Shown here piece by piece: positions 8,360-36,510 of a stretch of 64,000 nt of DNA (its first letter is position 1; each line of letters starts with the position of its first letter). The notes under the pieces were generated by a model. It did no database searches. It was not told the origin of the DNA and was given only the letters and a program-made list of their open reading frames with translations. This DNA is from Clostridia bacterium (GTDB taxonomy: Bacteria > Bacillota > Clostridia > Oscillospirales > CAG-272), in the NCBI GenBank assembly GCA_017453305.1, contig JAFTKJ010000025.1:392-64391 (forward strand), in the 5' to 3' direction. Both the position numbers and the translations under genes were made by a program.

Positions 8360-8700
8360 TCTCCTTTCGGTATTTTTTCCAACAAAAAACGCCCTGTTAC
8401 CTTGCGGTAATAGGGACGAGGTTTTCGCGGTGCCACCCTGATTGAAGCAAACGAATGCTTCCACTTTTCGCATACCTACATATGCGGCGCCACGTGATAA
8501 CGGGAGCGCACCCCGTCGAAGCCTACTGATGCATGCGCACGTTCGGTTCGCCCTTGGAAGCCCATTCCTCTCGCCGTGCCTGCCGCAATTCCACCACCTG
8601 CGACTCTCTGAAAGAGCACCTCTGCAAAAGTACTATTCTTCCTCATCGGTTTTTGTTGTTTTTAATAGTATACCTCTTTTTTGGCAATTTGTCAATAGGT
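8360..8700 (-). promoter_or_regulatory. T-box riboswitch leader (Trp specifier) controlling trpB2
   Basis: Minus strand contains promoter TTGACA-17-TATACT (~8745-8717), AGAGAG GA-motif, candidate specifier UGGA, AGUAGG distal loop, T-box sequence AAUCAGGGUGGCACCGCG and terminator hairpin ccctattaccgcaaggtaacaggg+U6 immediately before the start codon. Confidence 0.65.
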
Positions 8701-27648: not shown

Positions 27649-27690
27649 AAGTGTGCCGCAAATGCATTGCATTTGCGGCACGTTTTTATT
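27649..27690. terminator. bidirectional terminator
   Basis: gtgccgcaaatgca-ttgc-atttgcggcac + ttttatttt. Confidence 0.65.
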
Positions 27691-27699
27691 TTGAAATGA

Positions 27700-27911
27700 T
27701 TATTTCTTCGTGGGAGGCTCGGGAGCCCAAGTCTTGGGGAAGCCTGCTGCAAAGCCCTCCAGGTTATCCTGGTCAAGGGACTTCTTGTTTGCTTCGTCTT
27801 CTTCCAGTGCCTTCTTTACTTCTTCGTCAGCCTCTTTGTTGTTGGCAAAATCGTCCAATCCGCCAAGGATATCGTCCTCTGCCACTTGATTCTTCAATTC
27901 TTCAGACATCT
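27700..27911 (-). CDS. 70-aa highly acidic, probably disordered protein (last gene of SPFH operon)
   Basis: MSEELKNQVAEDDILGGLDDFANNKEADEEVKKALEEDEANKK...; RBS gaggagg; ATG 1 nt after upstream stop. Confidence 0.5.
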
Positions 27912-29674
27912 TATTTTGCCTCCTCAATCATCATGATATCCAAATCGCCGATGTTGCAGGGAACAAAGCCGTTAACCAGAGCAAGGATAGCGATCCACTC
28001 GTTTGCTGCTTTTTCAATCGTACTGCATCCATTGTTGACTATTTGGTCATATTTATTATTAATTGCAAGCTTATCAGCCTTTGCCTTGCCGTTCTTCTTG
28101 TTCCAGAATACGAATACGACAACAGCGCAGATCAAACCGATGATAGCAACGGGAGCCGCATCTACTGCGAAGCAGATAGCGCCTACTACTGCGAGCACCA
28201 GAGCGATGATCAGCATAGCGGTGGGGGACTTAATGGTTGCAAGCTCTGCGTCACGCTTCTTGTTGACGTGAGCGGTGTAATCTTCCTTCATCTTGCCCTT
28301 GTTGGCACCGTCGGTGGTGTTACCCTTCCAATCGTCCACCTTAACGGTGATCTCCTGCGGGAAGTCGTCGCGCTTCTCACCGATGAACTTGTGGTAAGCG
28401 GGAACAATGTACTTGCTCAGGAATGCGCAAGAGGTCTTGCGTGCGGAAGCGAGGCTGCCGCTCTGATCGCCGGAGGTGATTGCCTGGGTCAACTGTTCTG
28501 CAAAGTTGATGGGCGGGTCAGCTCTCTTGATCTTTCTTGCCTGGATGATTCTCTTTGCAAGCTCTTCATCACCCTTCAGTCTCTTGATCTCAGACATGAG
28601 CTCTTCCTCTTCACGCAGAGGAGCCTCTTCGTCGTCAAACTTGCTGACCAGAGTGAGCAGCTCGTTGTCGATCATGTTAGCCAGCTTGGTCTTATCAACG
28701 GAAGCGTTTGCAATGCCTTCAAAGTGAGCAAAGATCTCGTCTACGGCGTTGATGCGCTTTACGTAAGCGTTGATGCGCTCAAACTCGGGGCAAACCTTTG
28801 CAAGGGTGGGGTAGGTCTCGTTGATGTCTACGCATCTGCTCTGGTAGAACTGTGCCCAGTAAGCAGCCTGCTCAGCAGCGAGAGAGCCGTTTTCGTCAAT
28901 TTCCTTCATCCACTGATCAACGTAGCTGTAGAAGTCACAGGTCTGCTTGATCTCTTCAGAGTTGGGATCGCCAAATACGCCGTTTACGTAAGCGTTGATG
29001 TAAACGATGATACTGCTGCGCATCATCTTTGCCTTTTGCATGCCAAAGTACATGTTGAGCCACTTGTAGCAAGCCAGGTTTCTTGCGTGGTTGACCTTTT
29101 CGTCGTCGGTGTTAGCAGCTCTGCGGCAAACCAGTGCGAAAACGAGAGCGGTCTTTTCCTTATCGCGGTTAAGGGCTTCCTTCAATGCGCGATCAGCAAG
29201 CTCCTTGTTGTCTGCGATCCATGCGGAGAGTGCAACTACGCAGGGAGCGAGCCAATACTTGGGAGTGGAGATCATCAACTGCTCGGAAGCGGTTGCGATG
29301 GTGTCGTTACGAACCAGGGCGAGATCGGTTGCCTGAAGGATACCGAGCATGGTGTTTCTGACCAGCTGATAGCTGCCGTACTTTTGCTCGAGCTCCTGGC
29401 GGATACGGATGATCTCGGTGAGTGCGCGCTGCAGGGCAGCTGCCATTCTCTGTTCCTTAACCATCTTTACAAAGCGGTCGCGCAGATCAGCCAATTGGCT
29501 ATCTACCTGATTGACTTTGCGGTCTACAAGGACCACATTGTCGTTGACGGTAATGAGGTTATTACCGATTTGCGTAGTCTGTGACTGCAAAGCAGATACA
29601 GCAGCAGCCGTGCGAGCAATGCTGTTGGATATGTTTGTCAGGTCAACATAACTAACTTGGACTTCATTTGACAT
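27911..29674 (-). CDS. 587-aa coiled-coil protein with C-proximal transmembrane hairpin, unknown family
   Basis: Strong RBS aaaggag; long helical N-region, charged EEEEL...KRLKGDEEL segment, two TM helices (AMLIIALVLAVVGAICFAV / APVAIIGLICAVVVFVFW), ~70-aa C-tail. Confidence 0.65.
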   Translation of the reverse strand: MSNEVQVSYVDLTNISNSIARTAAAVSALQSQTTQIGNNLITVNDNVVLVDRKVNQVDSQLADLRDRFVKMVKEQRMAAALQRALTEIIRIRQELEQKYGSYQLVRNTMLGILQATDLALVRNDTIATASEQLMISTPKYWLAPCVVALSAWIADNKELADRALKEALNRDKEKTALVFALVCRRAANTDDEKVNHARNLACYKWLNMYFGMQKAKMMRSSIIVYINAYVNGVFGDPNSEEIKQTCDFYSYVDQWMKEIDENGSLAAEQAAYWAQFYQSRCVDINETYPTLAKVCPEFERINAYVKRINAVDEIFAHFEGIANASVDKTKLANMIDNELLTLVSKFDDEEAPLREEEELMSEIKRLKGDEELAKRIIQARKIKRADPPINFAEQLTQAITSGDQSGSLASARKTSCAFLSKYIVPAYHKFIGEKRDDFPQEITVKVDDWKGNTTDGANKGKMKEDYTAHVNKKRDAELATIKSPTAMLIIALVLAVVGAICFAVDAAPVAIIGLICAVVVFVFWNKKNGKAKADKLAINNKYDQIVNNGCSTIEKAANEWIAILALVNGFVPCNIGDLDIMMIEEAK

Positions 29675-29732
29675 GAAAACGTCACTCCTTTATATAATTT
29701 TTTGGGGCACAAAATAAATTTGGTGGACGCGA

Positions 29733-30542
29733 TTATCCCATCTTTTCCAGAATCTGCGCCTCCAGTTTGTTGTAGGCGGTGAGGAATTTTTGCCTCATCT
29801 CCTCATCCTGCATTGCTTCAATCACGTCACCAATGGGGTGGACGTAGGTGTGCAGGAAGCGCTGGGTTTTGTTGCGCAGATAGAAGGTTTCGTTGGGATA
29901 GGGGGAATCGGGGTTGGTTCTGATTGAAGAGAGCAATGCATAGCAGGTTTTTGGAATATTGCAATCTTGGGCAAGCTCCATGTAAATGTCTGCCAGCTCT
30001 TGGGTCAGGTAATCGATGGAATTGCGCTTTGCGATGACGGAAGGGGAGAAGGCGTCTACGAATGCGCAGAGCTCTTCGCTTGTCTGAGCATTGCCGCGGA
30101 CCAGATCCAAAATCTGCTCCTCATGCTCGCTCAGGCGTGCCGGGGAGGCGAGGAAAAACTCCTTGAGGGTGTTGATCTCGTCCTCGTCCAACGGTTCACT
30201 TTGCTGCTCGACCAGGCGCTCCTCGAAAAAGTTGTACAACGCTTTTTCTTTGCGGTTTTTTGCAATAAAACGGTCGTAAAAAGCCAGGATATACTTTGCA
30301 GGTGCATTGTCTACCGCATAAGCAAGAGCACCCTGCGCGCATTCCACCGCACGGTCGAATTCACGGTTCAGGAAATACTCGGTCGCCTTTTTGACGTTGC
30401 TTTGTACAGACGGACCTGCGTTGATCTCTTTACGGGGGATGTGTACCAGCTGATGACACCAATCGCAACGGCACGTACGCGTTTTGAGGTCGATGTTCAA
30501 CGAGGCGTTACAATTCCCACAGCTATAGGGTATTGCGTCCAT
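29733..30542 (-). CDS. YdjG-like protein: N-terminal zinc ribbon + helical (TPR-like) domain
   Basis: YSCGNCNASLNIDLKTRTCRCDWCHQ; RBS aggggagg; 269 aa. Confidence 0.55.
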   Translation of the reverse strand: MDAIPYSCGNCNASLNIDLKTRTCRCDWCHQLVHIPRKEINAGPSVQSNVKKATEYFLNREFDRAVECAQGALAYAVDNAPAKYILAFYDRFIAKNRKEKALYNFFEERLVEQQSEPLDEDEINTLKEFFLASPARLSEHEEQILDLVRGNAQTSEELCAFVDAFSPSVIAKRNSIDYLTQELADIYMELAQDCNIPKTCYALLSSIRTNPDSPYPNETFYLRNKTQRFLHTYVHPIGDVIEAMQDEEMRQKFLTAYNKLEAQILEKMG

Positions 30543-30553
30543 AAGACCTCCCC

Positions 30554-31258
30554 TTACTTCGAAACACTCAACATCGTGTTTCTCGTTTTGAGAGTGACCT
30601 TAGCGGATTTGATCTTTTTCAGGATTGCTTCGGGCTCTTCCTCTTCGTCGATCATTGTTTGAATTTCAATGACCTGCATACGGAAGCGGCTCTCCAGCTC
30701 CTTGGTTTCGGCATTGCCGATGATATTACTGTATTCTACGGCTTGGCAAAGCACCTTGAGCTCTGCCTTGACCTCCGCATTTTCGGAAAGGTCTGCCATT
30801 CCGGTGATCTGAATTGCCAGACCGTCCAGCATTGCGGCACCGCCGTACAGCTCCTTGTCGTTTTGTGCAATGCGGCCGGATGCGTAGAAAATGAATACCA
30901 TCGCAGCAGCATATACGAGAAGGATGAGGATGTTTGGAAGAACGACGACCAAACGGTTGTCACCCTTGGAGATGATAACGAAGATCGTGTTCAGGATCAA
31001 CGAAACGATAAAGTAAACGCCGGTATACAAAAGGGCAGGGGTTCTTGACGAAATGGAAGCGTCTTTGTCTCCGGGTGCGAGGGCTGCCATTGCCGCTGTG
31101 ATGACAAAGGCGATCATCGCAAAGGTGTAACCGCCCCAGAAGAGGAATTCGCGGTTATCGGGATTGGAGAGCATAAAGACCAAAAGATTCCAGATAGCGG
31201 CGATGATCACAACGAAGATCATCGAGCTGAGACGAAAACGAAGCTTTTTAATTTTCAT
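30554..31258 (-). CDS. YdjH-like integral membrane protein (4 TM + cytoplasmic C-domain)
   Basis: 234 aa; RBS aaggag; position between SPFH and Zn-ribbon genes mirrors ydjH. Confidence 0.5.
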   Translation of the reverse strand: MKIKKLRFRLSSMIFVVIIAAIWNLLVFMLSNPDNREFLFWGGYTFAMIAFVITAAMAALAPGDKDASISSRTPALLYTGVYFIVSLILNTIFVIISKGDNRLVVVLPNILILLVYAAAMVFIFYASGRIAQNDKELYGGAAMLDGLAIQITGMADLSENAEVKAELKVLCQAVEYSNIIGNAETKELESRFRMQVIEIQTMIDEEEEPEAILKKIKSAKVTLKTRNTMLSVSK

Positions 31259-31276
31259 TACGGTATCTCCTTTTCT

Positions 31277-32725
31277 TTAGCCTTGTTGTGTGGGGGTTCC
31301 GCAGTTGTCACAGAATTTTGTACCGGGAGTCAGCTCCTTGCCGCAGCTTGTGCAGATCACTGCAAGGCGTGTGCCACAGTTGCCGCAGAACTTTGCGCCT
31401 GCGGGGAGCTCGTTACCGCAATTGGGGCAATGGTTGCCTTGCGGCTCTGCCTTCATGCCGCAGTTGGGACAAAACTTGGTGCCGGCGGGAAGAATGTTTC
31501 CGCAATTTTTGCAGGGGATACCTGCGGGAGCGACCTTTTGTCCGCAACCGGAGCAGAACTGTGCGCCTGCGGGAACGGGAGCGCCGCAATTGGAGCAGGG
31601 AGTACCTGCACCCTGTGCTTGCTGTGCGCCGGGGTTCATTGCGTTCATTGTACTTTGTGCCATGTTATCCATGCCCATGCCAAACGCTTTTCCCATACCA
31701 ACGCCCATGCCAAGTCCCATGCCTGCTCCCATAAAGTCGGAGCCGGAGCCGGTGTTGGCGGCGGCGGTCTTCATGACGTCAAAGCCCTTTTCCTGCTGAT
31801 AGGTGTAGCCCATCATGCGCATCTTTTTGGCTTCAGCCTCTGCAAGACGCTCCATGCGAATGGCTTCTGCCTCTGCCTCTGCCTGCGCAGTACCAATGGA
31901 CTGCTTTGCGGTAGCTGCCTTGAGGCGTTCCTCGTTGATGGGAGCCAGATCCTCGTCCGGCGCCATGATATCCATAAAGGAGAAGTCATGAATGACAACG
32001 CCGAATTCACTGAAGTAGGGAACCAGCTTTTCCTGAATGGTGGAAGCAAGCTTTTCGCGATTTTCGTGGATATTGAGAATGCCGATCTGCTTTTCCGCCA
32101 TGGTGGAAGCCAAGGTGTTGGAAAGTGCATCGGGAATCTTAATGCTCAAATATTCCTCAAGATCTTGCGTGGTAAATACCTTTTGGGTTCCTACAACGCG
32201 CTCCAGGAACTTCTTTGCATCATCGATACCGTCCTCGTTTTCGCGGATGGTGCCGATGTGTGCCGAGAAATAACCGTGTGCACGAACGTGAATTTCAACG
32301 TTGTAAACGGGGTCGCTCATTCTGATCGGTGCGGGAGTGCCCCACTTGGTGGGACGCAGACGGATCAGGTTGATGAAATAGACCTCGCAATGGTAGATGG
32401 TCTGTCCGCCCGTAGCCATACGGGTCATGCCGTTCATGCCTGCAATGTTGTTGCTGTCCAGAACCCATCTGCCGGAGCCGAGGGAACGCTCAGCCTTACC
32501 ATCGCGGAAGATGACTGCAACCTGCGACTCGTGAACGATCAAAACAGATTGATCGTTAAAATCCTCGATATCGTGCTTGTAAGCAACGATGTCGCGGCTT
32601 TGCGGATCATCCGGATCCCATTTGATCACGCTTAAAATACCTTTTTGGATTTTGCGGTCGATTTCGCCCTGCTCGGAGGGAGTAGTTTTACGAAACGCCG
32701 ACTTGATTGAACTGATAATACCCAT
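31277..32725 (-). CDS. SPFH/Band-7 family protein (YdjI-like) with Met/Gly-rich linker and four tandem C-terminal zinc ribbons
   Basis: N-domain KWDPDD..IVAYKHDIEDF..LIVHESQVAVIFRDGK aligns to B. subtilis YdjI (VEWEEFRDDMIFYKW..LIIRPGQDAVFLNNGR); GMG-rich linker; 8 CxxCG motifs (CSNCG, CSGCG, CKNCG, CPNCG, CPNCG, CGNCG, CTSCG, CDNCG). Confidence 0.8.
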   Translation of the reverse strand: MGIISSIKSAFRKTTPSEQGEIDRKIQKGILSVIKWDPDDPQSRDIVAYKHDIEDFNDQSVLIVHESQVAVIFRDGKAERSLGSGRWVLDSNNIAGMNGMTRMATGGQTIYHCEVYFINLIRLRPTKWGTPAPIRMSDPVYNVEIHVRAHGYFSAHIGTIRENEDGIDDAKKFLERVVGTQKVFTTQDLEEYLSIKIPDALSNTLASTMAEKQIGILNIHENREKLASTIQEKLVPYFSEFGVVIHDFSFMDIMAPDEDLAPINEERLKAATAKQSIGTAQAEAEAEAIRMERLAEAEAKKMRMMGYTYQQEKGFDVMKTAAANTGSGSDFMGAGMGLGMGVGMGKAFGMGMDNMAQSTMNAMNPGAQQAQGAGTPCSNCGAPVPAGAQFCSGCGQKVAPAGIPCKNCGNILPAGTKFCPNCGMKAEPQGNHCPNCGNELPAGAKFCGNCGTRLAVICTSCGKELTPGTKFCDNCGTPTQQG

Positions 32726-32775
32726 AGCGATCTCCTTTGTAAAAAAATGGAATGCGATGTAAAATCTACATATTA

Positions 32776-32803
32776 ATTATAGCACTTTTTTGAATTATGT
32801 CAA
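32776..32803 (-). promoter_or_regulatory. sigma-A type promoter of the SPFH operon (TTGACA-16-TATAAT)
   Basis: minus strand ttgacataattcaaaaaagtgctataat. Confidence 0.5.
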
Positions 32804-32856
32804 CAGTATTTTGACAAAAACTGTCGAAAAATGGCAAAAAAGTTCACAAAATACAA

Positions 32857-32895
32857 AACGAGTCTCCTCAATTGACGTCTTGAGGAGACTCGTTT
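32857..32895 (-). terminator. terminator of aldose-epimerase-like gene, insulating SPFH operon
   Basis: cgagtctcctcaa-ttgacgtc-ttgaggagactcg, T-rich on minus side. Confidence 0.55.
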
Positions 32896-32897
32896 GT

Positions 32898-33815
32898 TCA
32901 GTTGATTTTAATGGCGGTGCGATAGCACTTTGTTTCATGCGGTAAGATCTCCACCAAGCCGTGCTGCATGGCACCTCCGGGGAGGCGGAAGCAATCGATT
33001 GCCGTGGTTTGCGGCTCGCAGACAAAAAAGCTTCCGTCGGCGGTTTGATACAGCATACGATACGTAAATTGCGTATCGGCACTGTAGGTCAGGCAAAGCC
33101 CTGTGGAAAGGTCGGTCAACGTCATGTCGCCGCCTGCTTCGTAGAATGCGGAAAGATGCTTGCCATAGGGGATATATTCTCCGTTTTGCATTTCCCACTC
33201 GCGTGCACCTTCCTCGCGGAACTCACCCGTGGGGATAAAGCTTTCGGTGCGCAGCTCCTCTCTGCCAACCTGCAGGCGTACGCGGTGATCGACCGAGCGT
33301 GAGCCTTTGATCAGGGGCAGATTGAAGGTGGTGTGATACGCCAGCATAAAGGGCATGACCTCGTCGGAATCATTGGTGATCTCGTCGGTCTCGCACAAGC
33401 CGTTTTCGTTGAGCGTATAGCTTCTGACAAAGGTGAACGCATGCGGAAAGCCGATGTATTCTCCTGCCTTTGCGCGATAGACCAGGCGAACGCTGTCTGT
33501 GCTTTTCGCTTCTACCTCAAACGGCATGCGCCACAGCGCCCCGTGAATGTGACAGCCCGTGGAGGGCTCATTGAGGGGGAGGGTGTACTCTTTACCGCGA
33601 AAGGTGAATTTTGCGCCAAGGATACGGTTTGGCGGAAAGAGCGGTGGATTGCCGTAAAGATAGACGTTTTGTGACAATTCCTCCTCATCCCGGGGCGTGC
33701 GCAAAATATTTGCGTCGGTAGGTTTGTGGATCAAGCGATAGCAGATCCCTCCGCGTGAAGAGGAGACGTCTGCTTCATAGCCGCCGCCACAAAGATGTAT
33801 GTCGGTTGAGATCAT
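32898..33815 (-). CDS. aldose 1-epimerase family protein (galactose-mutarotase-like)
   Basis: 305 aa; beta-sandwich mutarotase-like pattern; assignment by overall similarity from memory. Confidence 0.5.
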   Translation of the reverse strand: MISTDIHLCGGGYEADVSSSRGGICYRLIHKPTDANILRTPRDEEELSQNVYLYGNPPLFPPNRILGAKFTFRGKEYTLPLNEPSTGCHIHGALWRMPFEVEAKSTDSVRLVYRAKAGEYIGFPHAFTFVRSYTLNENGLCETDEITNDSDEVMPFMLAYHTTFNLPLIKGSRSVDHRVRLQVGREELRTESFIPTGEFREEGAREWEMQNGEYIPYGKHLSAFYEAGGDMTLTDLSTGLCLTYSADTQFTYRMLYQTADGSFFVCEPQTTAIDCFRLPGGAMQHGLVEILPHETKCYRTAIKIN

Positions 33816-33894: not shown

Positions 33895-36510
33895 TTATCG
33901 GAATTCCGTCACGGCGTCGTCAAGATAGACGTGCGTACGGAGAATGGAGTAGGACTCCTTGGTAGGGTCGCCCGAAAGGATGCCGCACTTTTCCCTGGCG
34001 GCGGTGATCAAAAGCTCGGGATTGAGGTGCTCGACGTTGCCCGCGCGGAGCGTTGCGCAAATGCGGATCTTGCCATCCTCGGGGGATGTGACAGAAACCT
34101 TGCGGATCAGGGGGATCAGATCGACCTCCTTCTCACCCGACTTTGATTTTTTGGTCATCGTCAAGGGGGAGGTGGAGTACAGTGCTTGGAGCTCCTGCGC
34201 TTTTTGCGCGTTGGCACCCTCAAAGCGGAGCACCATTTCGTAGCTTGCCCAAGCAATGTCGGCAAATTTGCTTGTGGGTACGTAAGCATCGAGGATTTGC
34301 ATCTCCTCTGTCAACTCGCGGTTGAGCAGTTCCTTAACCTCCTCACATGGGATATCACGGTCTACGCGCAGGTCGATGAACTCGCACTCACTTTCGGTTC
34401 CCACCGAAAGGGGAAGTCCAAATACCACCTTGGCGTGAGGATTAAAGCCCTGCGTGTACCACATGGGAATGTTGGCGCGTACCAGGACGCGCGCAATGGT
34501 GCGTTGCAGATCCAGGTGCGAGATGTACTGCAGGTCACCAACCTTGCGGAATTTGATGCGCACGTTACGGAATTCCTCCAAGGGCTTCCATGCGCTCTTA
34601 TCCTGCTTTTGCGGCAGAGGCGTATCGCTCTTTGCTTGTTCCGTCTCCTTGCATCCGGGGCAGACCGCGCGTACACCGCCAAGCTTGTTGGCACCGCATG
34701 CCGAGCAATGCTCACGGCAGTTTGGCGTGGTACTCGCGGCATATGCTTTTTCACGCTCGCGCAGGAAAAATTCCTTGCTTACGCCGCAGTCGATGATATC
34801 CCAGGGCAGGATCTCATCCGTGCTAAATTTGCGGTTGGCATAAAATGCAGGGTCAACGCCCGTGCGCTCGAATACCGAGAGCCATTTGTCATAGTCAAAG
34901 TACTCGTCCCAAGCGTCAAAGCAAAAGCCCTCGTTGCATGCAAGCTCCAACGCATCGGCAAGGCGGCGGTCACCGCGTGCCAACACAGCCTCTATGCGAG
35001 ATACCTTTGCATCGTGATGTTGATAGCGTACGTGCTTGTTTTTGATCTTGGTTTTCAGATATTCCTGCTTTTCTGCAAGCATTTCCATGGTGTCCTGTGC
35101 CTCCCACTGGAAGGGGGTAAAGGGCTTTGGAATGAAGCAGGAAACGCTGACTGTGACCTGCACGGGACGGGATTTGTTACGGTTGGGGTTTTGATAGTAG
35201 GCATCCACTACGTGCTCGGCAAGGGTTGCAATGCCTTCAATGTCCTCAAGCGTTTCGGTGGGGAGTCCGTTCATAAAATAAAGCTTTACAGCATTCTTTT
35301 TGGCGTCAAACGCAACGTTTACCGCACGCATGACGTCCTCCTCGTGCACGTTTTTGTTGATGACGTCACGCAATCTTTGCGTGCCTGCTTCGGGAGCGAA
35401 GGTCAGGGAGGAGGAACGCACCGACTCAATGCGGCGCATCAGATCCTTGTTAAAGCTGTCCACGCGCAAAGAGGGGAGTGAAAGGCTGACCATATTGTCG
35501 TCAGTCCAATTGAGAAGCTTATCACACAACGGTTCAAGAGCGGTATAATCGCTGATGGAGAGGGAGGAGAGCGAGATCTCCTCGTACCCCGTGGAGTTAT
35601 AAAGTGCTTTTGCTTGATGATTGAGCACGTCCGCACTCTTTTCACGCACGGGGCGGTAGATCATACCCGCTTGGCAGAAGCGGCAGCCGCGGATGCATCC
35701 GCGGTAGACCTCCAGCATAATGCGGTCGTGTACCGTTTCAATGTAAGGCATGACCACACGGTCGGGGAAATAGACCGTGTCCAGATCCTTGATGATCTGT
35801 TTTTCCACACGCGTGGGGATATCGTCGTAAATGGGAGTGTATGCCTTGATGGTGCCATCCTCGTTGTAGCTTACCTCGTACAAGGAGGGAACGTAAACAC
35901 CGCGAATGGTCTTTGCAGCCTCGTGCAAAAAGGCTTGGCGAGTGTAAGTACCATCGTCCTTCATTTTGATGTAAAGACGTACGATTTCGGGGAGCATGTC
36001 CTCACCTTCACCGATGTTGAACAGATCGAAGAAATCTGCAATCGGCTCGGGGTTGTATGCGCACGGACCGCCGCCCACGATGATGGGATCGTTTTCGCCT
36101 CTGTCACACGTGCGCAGGGGGAGTTTTGCTAAGGAGAGCATATTGAGCACGTTGGTGTAGCTCATTTCATATTGCAGGGTAAAGCCAATGAAGTCGAACG
36201 CCGAGAGCGGGTCGCCGCTTTCCAACGCTGTCAATGGCAGGTTATGCTCGCGCATTTTCTCCTGCATGTCTGCCCACGGGTCAAATACGCGCTCGCACCA
36301 AATATCCTCGTGCTGATTGAGAGAGCCGTAAAGCAGTCGCATGCCAAGATTTGACATGCCGATCTCGTAGGTGTCGGGAAAACAGAAGGCAAAGCGCGCC
36401 TTAACGGCGGTAGGGTCTTTTATAATTTGTCCGTACTCGCCGCCGGCATATCTTCCGGGCTTGGAAACGGATTTGAGAATGGTACTGTTTGGTTTGGTAG
36501 AATGATTCAT
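33895..36510 (-). CDS. B12-binding-like radical SAM protein fused to DUF2344 (TIGR03960-TIGR03936 fusion)
   Basis: 871 aa; CIRGCRFCQAG radical-SAM cluster motif; N-terminal B12-like domain; C-terminal ~250 aa DUF2344-like. Confidence 0.75.
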   Translation of the reverse strand: MNHSTKPNSTILKSVSKPGRYAGGEYGQIIKDPTAVKARFAFCFPDTYEIGMSNLGMRLLYGSLNQHEDIWCERVFDPWADMQEKMREHNLPLTALESGDPLSAFDFIGFTLQYEMSYTNVLNMLSLAKLPLRTCDRGENDPIIVGGGPCAYNPEPIADFFDLFNIGEGEDMLPEIVRLYIKMKDDGTYTRQAFLHEAAKTIRGVYVPSLYEVSYNEDGTIKAYTPIYDDIPTRVEKQIIKDLDTVYFPDRVVMPYIETVHDRIMLEVYRGCIRGCRFCQAGMIYRPVREKSADVLNHQAKALYNSTGYEEISLSSLSISDYTALEPLCDKLLNWTDDNMVSLSLPSLRVDSFNKDLMRRIESVRSSSLTFAPEAGTQRLRDVINKNVHEEDVMRAVNVAFDAKKNAVKLYFMNGLPTETLEDIEGIATLAEHVVDAYYQNPNRNKSRPVQVTVSVSCFIPKPFTPFQWEAQDTMEMLAEKQEYLKTKIKNKHVRYQHHDAKVSRIEAVLARGDRRLADALELACNEGFCFDAWDEYFDYDKWLSVFERTGVDPAFYANRKFSTDEILPWDIIDCGVSKEFFLREREKAYAASTTPNCREHCSACGANKLGGVRAVCPGCKETEQAKSDTPLPQKQDKSAWKPLEEFRNVRIKFRKVGDLQYISHLDLQRTIARVLVRANIPMWYTQGFNPHAKVVFGLPLSVGTESECEFIDLRVDRDIPCEEVKELLNRELTEEMQILDAYVPTSKFADIAWASYEMVLRFEGANAQKAQELQALYSTSPLTMTKKSKSGEKEVDLIPLIRKVSVTSPEDGKIRICATLRAGNVEHLNPELLITAAREKCGILSGDPTKESYSILRTHVYLDDAVTEFR

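Follow-up and report, generated by a model that had tools for sequence, protein, structure and literature searches.

A soluble SPFH protein with four C-terminal zinc ribbons from a Clostridia bacterium, and the copy-variable tails of its relatives

In Bacillus subtilis, the SPFH protein YdjI, also called SamI, is a product of the pspA-ydjGHI (pspA-samGHI) operon and carries a single C-terminal zinc-finger motif that follows a low-complexity region (PMC8581546; bioRxiv 10.64898/2026.02.06.704340; PMC11237479). SamI has no membrane anchor and is recruited by the membrane proteins SamG and SamH (PMC8581546; bioRxiv 10.64898/2026.02.06.704340). It also recruits PspA and restrains SamGH signaling (PMC8581546; bioRxiv 10.64898/2026.02.06.704340; PMC11237479). 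Here we describe a protein of this type that is encoded in a 64,000-nucleotide stretch of DNA from Clostridia bacterium (assembly GCA_017453305.1, contig JAFTKJ010000025.1). We call this whole stretch the window, and all coordinates are window positions on the minus strand unless the plus strand is named. The gene in question (gene A, 31277..32725) heads a predicted five-gene operon (genes A to E) and encodes an SPFH protein of the Band_7_1 class that is soluble and ends in four zinc ribbons. We find that multi-ribbon tails are the norm in the branch to which gene A belongs, and that four ribbons lie in the upper tail of the distribution but are neither unique nor the maximum. Furthermore, soluble Band_7_1 SPFH proteins may have either ribbons or a SHOCT domain as their C-terminal module, which is interchangeable and labile in copy number.

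Gene A in comparison with described SPFH proteins

Gene A and YdjI/SamI have in common an SPFH domain of the Band_7_1 class without a membrane anchor, a low-complexity region, a zinc motif at the C-terminus, and neighboring genes for membrane proteins. By its solubility, low-complexity region, and C-terminal zinc motif, gene A can be assigned to the YdjI/SamI type. There are also clear differences. The two SPFH domains are distant, and YdjI is absent by name from the best 150 cluster representatives retrieved with the gene A domain. An earlier note on this DNA, made by a model from the letters and background knowledge, held that YdjI has a single ribbon. This agrees with the published descriptions, on which our comparison of one zinc motif with four is based. 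In place of PspA, the TPM-domain protein YdjH, and a protein of the YdjG type (two zinc ribbons, an NTF2-like domain, and a transmembrane (TM) segment), the window operon has the unannotated genes B, C, D, and E. It shows no PspA_IM30 or TPM match in Pfam, its gene C product has one ribbon and no TM segment, and its gene B product has four TM segments. A single-sequence phmmer search revealed no PspA-like open reading frame (ORF) in the 64-kb window, but this is a weak test, with Escherichia coli PspA as its only query.

The proteins most similar to gene A are unnamed. Multi-ribbon Band_7_1 proteins of gut Clostridia and Methanobrevibacter, annotated only as 'SPFH domain-containing protein', have the same SPFH domain, coiled coil, Gly-rich linker, (CxxCG-x10-CxxCG)n tail, and gene B partner. 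These relatives carry two to five ribbons and show no difference in kind from gene A. Another group of Band_7_1 proteins (PF13421 with PF09851) has the same body, linker, and neighbors, which include gene B and a protein with a zinc ribbon (ZnR), a TIR domain, and TPRs, but a short helical SHOCT domain replaces the Cys4 ribbons. The ribbons themselves are also familiar, in that Pfam Zn_Ribbon_1 matches each gene A unit and DZR (double zinc ribbon) matches the units pairwise, although Pfam gives neither family a function. Tandem ribbons occur so commonly that Pfam has a separate family, DZR, for them, and the gene A tail amounts to two pairs of the DZR type that are placed one after the other on an SPFH scaffold. 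Gene A is an ordinary multi-ribbon Band_7_1 SPFH protein whose tail these two Pfam families already cover.

More distant comparisons can be made with the cage-forming complexes HflK/C-FtsH, QmcA-YbbJ, stomatin, prohibitin, and flotillin, whose fold aligns with the one predicted for gene A residues ~30-300 (Foldseek E values 2e-9 to 1e-6). These complexes enclose or regulate membrane partners, are themselves anchored in the membrane, and lack ribbon arrays. The earlier note had called gene A a flotillin-like membrane scaffold, which is too loose a label for a protein without a membrane anchor. The flotillins FloA and FloT have an N-terminal TM anchor, either a helix or a hairpin, and a long EA-repeat domain, whereas gene A has no TM segment and only a short EA-rich stretch at residues ~280-300, and 'flotillin-like' fits it at the level of the SPFH superfamily only. 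A further system combines an SPFH domain, a coiled coil, and a zinc ribbon in a membrane-remodeling neighborhood (PMC10936438). The likeness is one of shared domains, and the neighborhood is different, with adaptin-appendage, GOLD, and ESCRT components.

The ribbon tail and its variation among relatives

In the 482-aa product of gene A, the SPFH domain is followed by a short EA-rich coiled coil, after which come a disordered linker rich in Gly and Met and then four Cys4 zinc ribbons. Hydropathy analysis of the whole 482 aa gave no hydrophobic or TM segment, indicating a soluble protein. Residues 1-30 (32636..32725) make up a basic N-terminal extension (pI about 10) with short helices predicted in an AlphaFold2 model, and it is possible that they contact the membrane or a partner. 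The SPFH domain spans residues 31-258 (31952..32635). Band_7_1 (PF13421) matches it at residues 60-258 with 105.4 bits against a gathering cut-off of 24, and the model agrees with this assignment by showing an SPFH alpha/beta fold followed by long helices. This model was built on an 18-sequence alignment and has a mean predicted local distance difference test (pLDDT) score of 65, with confident values for the SPFH domain (80-88). It places helices across residues 257-324, and the EA-rich coiled coil at residues 259-325 (31751..31951) includes a GYTYQQE motif that is conserved in an alignment of relatives. Residues 321-374 are predicted to be disordered (pLDDT about 26-35). This region takes in the low-complexity linker at residues 326-374 (31604..31750), which has 14 Gly and 9 Met among its 49 aa and, within its DNA, a 12-nt repeat reported by Tandem Repeats Finder (31691-31732). 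At the knuckles of the ribbons, the model shows four pairs of short strands, or beta-hairpins, arranged as beads on a string (pLDDT 62-68).

When the model was compared with the PDB by Foldseek at E <= 0.001, it matched cage-forming SPFH proteins exclusively (E values 2e-9 to 1e-3). Among the matches are prohibitin (8rrh), stomatin (9oh9), HflK/C (9cz2 and 7vhq), QmcA (8z5g), flotillin (9l3g), erlin, and the vault shoulder. A sequence search of the PDB with the whole gene A protein returned no similar chain.

According to the earlier note, the SPFH protein ends in four tandem zinc ribbons with eight CxxCG motifs, encoded at 31277-31610. This description is accurate in its coordinates, which cover the stop codon and the last ~110 codons, and in its motifs, and the four units that it quoted match the protein to the letter. 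Each ribbon is a 21-aa unit of the form CxxCG-x10-CxxCG, and all eight knuckles read CxxCG. The four-fold repeat likewise stands. The note put the unit at ~26 aa, and the first Cys residues of ribbons 1-4 (residues 377, 405, 433, and 458) are spaced by 28, 28, and 25 aa. The ribbons are TPCSNCGAPVPAGAQFCSGCG (ribbon 1, 31541..31603), IPCKNCGNILPAGTKFCPNCG (ribbon 2, 31457..31519), NHCPNCGNELPAGAKFCGNCG (ribbon 3, 31373..31435), and VICTSCGKELTPGTKFCDNCG (ribbon 4, 31298..31360). Pfam agrees with the motif in each case, reporting Zn_Ribbon_1 (PF13240) in four separate stretches (E 1.5e-28), Zn_ribbon_3 in four stretches, and DZR (PF12773) in two (E 4.5e-24). Motif, Pfam, and model together show that all four units have the two CxxC knuckles on beta-hairpins that characterize a zinc ribbon. 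Ribbons 3 and 4 are joined by the 4-aa linker TRLA, and a 4-aa linker is likewise clearly conserved in the terminal ribbon pair of relatives. From their Cys4 pattern, the ribbons would each be expected to bind one Zn(II) ion, although in an anaerobe they may instead hold Fe(Cys)4.

The repeat is also visible in the DNA, as the earlier note had remarked. Within 31277-31610, identity at a lag of 84 nt is 0.51, compared with an average of 0.28 over all in-frame lags (z = 3.6), and lesser peaks occur at lags of 42 and 75. However, 500 back-translations of the peptide with the codon usage of the gene give an expected lag-84 identity of 0.503 +/- 0.018. Because the observed and expected values are equal, the periodicity is fully explained by the protein repeat and codon usage, and a recent DNA duplication of the ribbons can be rejected. 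The ribbon units share 51-70% nucleotide identity pairwise (33-57% at third positions), and Tandem Repeats Finder, run on 31000-33000, reported nothing in the ribbon region. Thus, the ribbon duplications are old, and the DNA gives no sign of recent expansion or gene conversion.

Ribbon number was examined in three samples of relatives, each gathered with the SPFH part alone so that selection was unbiased by ribbon content. Sample a is from an exhaustive phmmer search with residues 1-300 against 1.84 billion 50%-cluster representatives and consists of the best 150 of 1759 matches at E <= 1e-3. Sample b is from a scan of one genome per GTDB species with an SPFH-only alignment, which yielded 594 confirmed candidates, and 80 loci with complete genes were counted. 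Sample c is from a search of 5.8 billion 90%-clusters with a profile built on SPFH domains from this type of operon and consists of the best 120 of 3758 matches at E <= 1e-10. These samples were used instead of an earlier word-indexed homolog search with the SPFH part, whose 22 matches were too few for statistics.

C-terminal ribbon counts of 0, 1, 2, 3, and 4 were found in 67, 13, 41, 25, and 4 proteins of sample a and in 7, 5, 53, 50, and 5 of sample c. The corresponding numbers for sample b are 13, 3, 35, 21, and 3, with another five proteins carrying five ribbons, the maximum seen. Single-ribbon tails thus make up only 16%, 4%, and 4% of the ribbon-bearing proteins in samples a, b, and c, whereas 84-96% have at least two ribbons, with two or three being typical. 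Four-ribbon tails account for about 3-10%. The earlier note had called an expanded array unusual, while granting that it would not be so if multi-ribbon tails were the norm for the family, and these counts show that in the branch of gene A they are. Here a tail usually holds between two and five ribbons, so that the four-ribbon tail of gene A is ordinary.

Some details of the samples are worth recording. Sample a includes 17 proteins with one to three additional N-terminal ribbons, which brings their totals to as many as six. Its class without ribbons is heterogeneous and includes several proteins whose ribbons in fact have CxC knuckles, about 25 that end in a SHOCT-like tail, and some fragments. 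The five-ribbon proteins of sample b come from Anaerocolumna, Miniphocaeibacter, and Tissierellia genomes, and three of the five four-ribbon clusters of sample c belong to gene A's own clade. The consensus of 422 ribbons is xxCPxCGAxLPxGAKFCxxCGxK, with a 10-residue spacer in 81%, and the gene A units are near-perfect copies of it. Besides the four Cys residues, the conserved positions are the G after Cys2 (80%), G13 (59%), A14 (61%), K15 (68%), F16 (90%), G21 (98%), and K23 (52%), and the others are variable.

Ribbon number also changes over short distances. Proteins P0015, with three ribbons, and P0017, with two, share 98% identity over 441 aa. P0015 has exactly one 28-aa unit more, which shows a very recent gain or loss of that unit. 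Closer to the window, the orthologs P0001-P0003, with full-length identities of 83-98% to gene A, have four ribbons as well. Across the loci at which the five-gene operon recurs, the number is four at L001, three at L010, L089, and L091, and two at L011. The gene A lineage exceeds by one the three ribbons that are typical of this operon at L010, L089, and L091.

Exchange of the whole tail is seen in the SHOCT-tailed relatives, which retain the same linker and the same neighbors, with gene B downstream in 12 of 13 cases. Their SHOCT-like tails follow the consensus ...DDMAAFKAKVEKLxxMKxAGxIxEEEF...LL. SHOCT has been proposed to be an oligomerization module, and PF13421 is its commonest partner domain (PMC3581485). 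Loci with a SHOCT-like helix pair in place of ribbons and the same gene context include L028, L040, L048, L050, L053, L058, L059, L078, L079, L083, and L086.

Close SPFH relatives (36-37% identity) are also present in Methanobrevibacter and related archaeal metagenome-assembled genomes (L016, L017, L019, L021, L022, and L039). These six of the 80 genome loci have one or two ribbons (two in five of the six) and adjoin genes for proteins with N-terminal ribbons. This suggests that there has been exchange between gut bacteria and methanogens.

Possible roles of the ribbon tail

SPFH proteins build rings or cages in which the C-terminal ends converge at a crown. With this in mind, we lean, if only somewhat, toward the view that gene A encodes a soluble scaffold of the YdjI/SamI class whose copy-variable ribbon tail, standard for its branch, serves for docking and is both flexible and multivalent. 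Together with the helices that follow it, the SPFH domain would oligomerize on the cytoplasmic side of the membrane and form a ring or cage, as is the case for HflK/C, stomatin, prohibitin, and flotillin, and the four-TM protein B would dock the gene A complex there, much as SamG and SamH anchor SamI in B. subtilis. From the crown of the oligomer, the Gly/Met-rich linker of each subunit would then project four ribbons that fold independently, such that n subunits would present a cloud of 4n ribbons. As an adaptor of this kind, gene A might use its ribbons as generic additive (avidity-type) docking or self-association modules that tie the scaffold to C, D, E, or one another. The lability of ribbon number, in a tail that is also interchangeable, points to an additive role in docking or association rather than a fixed structural role. 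Multimerization or partner binding by the tail, which the earlier note had suggested, stays plausible.

Several considerations weigh against this proposal. Ribbon and SHOCT tails share the same neighbors, whereas a specific operon partner should co-vary with ribbons. Neither gene B nor gene C is a homolog of SamH (TPM domain) or SamG (two ZnRs, an NTF2-like domain, and a TM segment) as described in PMC11237479, and so the analogy to the B. subtilis system is functional only. The structure model of gene A is of moderate quality, and the ribbon counts were made by regular expressions over the nearest relatives of gene A rather than over all of PF13421. Finally, partner binding, zinc coordination, and oligomerization are properties that we infer for gene A rather than observe directly.

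A purely structural function for the ribbons would also be compatible with part of the evidence. They might self-associate in the manner proposed for SHOCT, closing or stabilizing the crown of the SPFH cage while recruiting nothing. C-terminal segments converge at the apex in solved SPFH cages, as established for HflK/C (ref. 61 of PMC10936438), and the ribbon positions that are conserved besides Cys are mostly Gly, Ala, and Phe. Furthermore, the proposed oligomerization module SHOCT substitutes for ribbon arrays in the same context (PMC3581485). However, a fixed cap should not tolerate two versus three ribbons at 98% identity, nor zero to five ribbons across the operon family, and a disordered linker of about 50 aa separates the ribbons from the helices, which leaves this explanation unlikely. 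It is even less probable that the tail binds the membrane, with conserved Lys and Phe residues of the ribbons contacting anionic lipids to give a protein without an anchor a multivalent affinity. Gene A does lack a TM segment, and among the 422 ribbons Lys (68%) and Phe (90%) precede the third Cys and Lys (52%) follows the last Gly. Moreover, membrane-stress proteins such as PspC and DUF2089 commonly have small ribbons of a similar kind at their cytoplasmic ends (PMC11237479). These observations must be set against a dedicated four-TM partner that is nearly always encoded next door, a tail net charge of only +4, and the replacement of ribbon tails by SHOCT tails that are acidic and helical.

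The exchange of ribbons for SHOCT also speaks against two other ideas, in which the tail would mainly bind nucleic acid or sense redox state. Cys4 zinc sites serve as redox switches in proteins such as Hsp33 and RsrA, and the 16 Cys in 108 aa of tail, together with the 9 Met in the 49-aa linker, could constitute a redox or metal sensor in which oxidation or metal exchange frees zinc and switches the complex. The host, an anaerobic gut Clostridia bacterium, would suit such a device. Yet SHOCT-tailed relatives, which have no Cys in the tail, keep the same linker and operon, ribbon number varies freely, and Pfam and NCBIfam scans found nothing redox-related in the operon, and we give the sensor little credence. 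We are at least as skeptical that the ribbons bind nucleic acid in the manner of TFIIS/TFIIB-type ribbons, a possibility that was raised in the earlier note. Zinc ribbons of other families do bind DNA or RNA (PMC3581485), and one relative's ribbon weakly matches a Cas12f zinc-finger model, although that match reflects shared CxxC knuckles only. The tail (residues 375-482) has 8 K+R versus 4 D+E, its surroundings are all membrane-associated (the four-TM partner and a TM-hairpin protein), SHOCT replaces the ribbons in the same operon context, and the window operon has no DNA-binding domain or nuclease by Pfam, NCBIfam, and PADLOC scans.

Returning to the docking tail that we favor, the four-ribbon tail in itself matters little, being one value of a variable that spans zero to five. 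Ribbon number is rather a simple handle on how SPFH scaffolds without anchors engage their partners.

The five-gene operon, a sister module with TIR proteins, and nearby features

The operon that gene A heads has thousands of homologs but lacks an annotated function, and it and a sister module with TIR proteins are more worth following up than the ribbons. The predicted operon extends over 27653..32803. Upstream of it, a terminator-like hairpin (32856..32895) after an aldose-1-epimerase gene separates the operon from that gene. A promoter-like site of the sigma-70 type (TTGACA, 16 nt, TG-TATAAT) at 32776..32803 matches the consensus at 12 of 12 positions and might serve to express the operon. 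It is followed by a ribosome-binding site, AAAGGAGA (32731..32738), located 5 nt ahead of the ATG at 32725. Gene B (30554..31258) encodes 234 aa with four TM helices predicted from hydropathy and a helical C-terminal (cytoplasmic) domain of about 110 aa (residues ~125-234). Gene C (29733..30542) encodes a soluble protein of 269 aa with an N-terminal Cys4 ribbon (C8, C11, C26, and C29) and a helical region. Gene D (27911..29674) encodes 587 aa, all-helical in an AlphaFold2 model, with a C-terminal TM hairpin. Gene E (27700..27909) encodes a 69-aa acidic protein with an LEGFAxGFP motif and has its own ribosome-binding site, GAGGAGG, within the end of gene D. The gaps between A and B, B and C, and C and D are 19, 12, and 59 nt, and a terminator-like hairpin of 13 bp with 8 GC pairs and a T-run (27653..27681) closes the operon.

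The five-gene arrangement recurs at L001, L010, L011, L089, and L091, and in 63 of the 80 genome loci the SPFH gene has a gene B homolog downstream, no more than two genes away. NCBIfam and PADLOC scans of the products of genes A to D gave nothing above threshold, there is no Pfam, NCBIfam, or PADLOC assignment for B to E, and none of 60 gene B homologs belongs to a Pfam family. Full-length homologs of gene D number more than 1467, and every one of them is unannotated. Its model (pLDDT 79) gave no PDB match at E <= 0.001 by Foldseek, with only weak TPR/ABC-TMD-like noise. Homologs of gene E follow gene D at L001:12726-12962, L089:8700-8864, and L091:8676-8885, and they share a C-terminal motif, L-E/D-G-F-A-x-G/C-F-P-x-W, that resembles a short linear docking motif. 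On the plus strand, ORFs of 450 aa (31283..32635) and 513 aa (28043..29584) lie opposite genes A and D, respectively. Both are rich in Cys, Gly, and Leu and low in complexity, and they look like shadow ORFs rather than genes.

Gene C connects this operon to a second arrangement. In the 80 genome loci, gene C homologs usually follow gene B or sit just upstream, and the first ~80 aa of gene C are homologous to the N-terminus of ZnR-TIR-TPR proteins in sister operons. TIR_2 and TPRs are present in 32 of 37 gene C homologs, and in many these are followed by TM segments and DUF6273, LRR_5, Flg_new, or RCC1 repeats. The gene C of the window has no TIR domain. It cannot be taken for a degenerate TIR protein, as the profile of the TIR homologs aligns to its first ~80 residues only. 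The gene order of the sister module is (small RHH protein), SPFH-(ZnR)n or SPFH-SHOCT, a ~230-aa four-TM protein, and a ZnR-TIR-TPR protein. Examples are found at L003:6692-13023 and L005:6211-10954 and at about 30 more loci (L018, L029, L034, L037, L041, L051, L062, and others).

The TIR protein of the sister operons weakly matches the Thoeris protein ThsB in PADLOC (E 3.6e-4). PADLOC-DB v2 defense models gave no match for A, B, or C and E values of about 2e-3 to 1e-2 for gene D, and no PADLOC v2 system matches the sister module. In the literature that we searched, there is no description of the module, of a defense system that pairs SPFH and TIR proteins, or of Band_7_1 ribbon arrays. The sister operon couples the same scaffold with a TIR-TPR transmembrane protein in a pairing found in neither source. 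Phages are not the main habitat of these genes, since 2.9 million viral contigs contain 13 relatives, compared with at least 594 candidate loci in genomes.

The two arrangements might be forms of one module. In the first form, SPFH-(ZnR)n or SPFH-SHOCT is combined with the four-TM protein and with a transmembrane protein of the ZnR-TIR-TPR type whose extracellular repeats vary (LRR, Flg_new, DUF6273, or RCC1). In the second, found in the window, SPFH-(ZnR)n and the four-TM protein are joined by a short helical protein with a ZnR, a helical protein of ~550 aa with a TM hairpin, and a small protein that is acidic. We speculate, tentatively and with more doubt than conviction, that a widespread and undescribed two-form membrane module of gut Firmicutes and methanogens has the ribbon-tailed SPFH protein as its scaffold and functions in envelope surveillance or defense signaling. 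The SPFH cage would keep a partner inactive, the ribbon array would be a multivalent latch, and ribbon copy number would tune the threshold. The restraint of SamGH by SamI offers a parallel for an SPFH cage that holds its partner inactive.

Two other features of the window lie outside the operon. Upstream of it, at 33895..36510, is a gene for an 871-aa protein whose 86% ortholog locus in L001 carries Radical_SAM_N2, Radical_SAM, and DUF2344. This gene is conserved in the related genome, again upstream of the SPFH operon, and probably has an unrelated housekeeping function. The window yielded no tRNA genes, and its sole Rfam match is a T-box leader (RF00230) at 8409..8655, which scores 110.7 bits against a gathering cut-off of 93.

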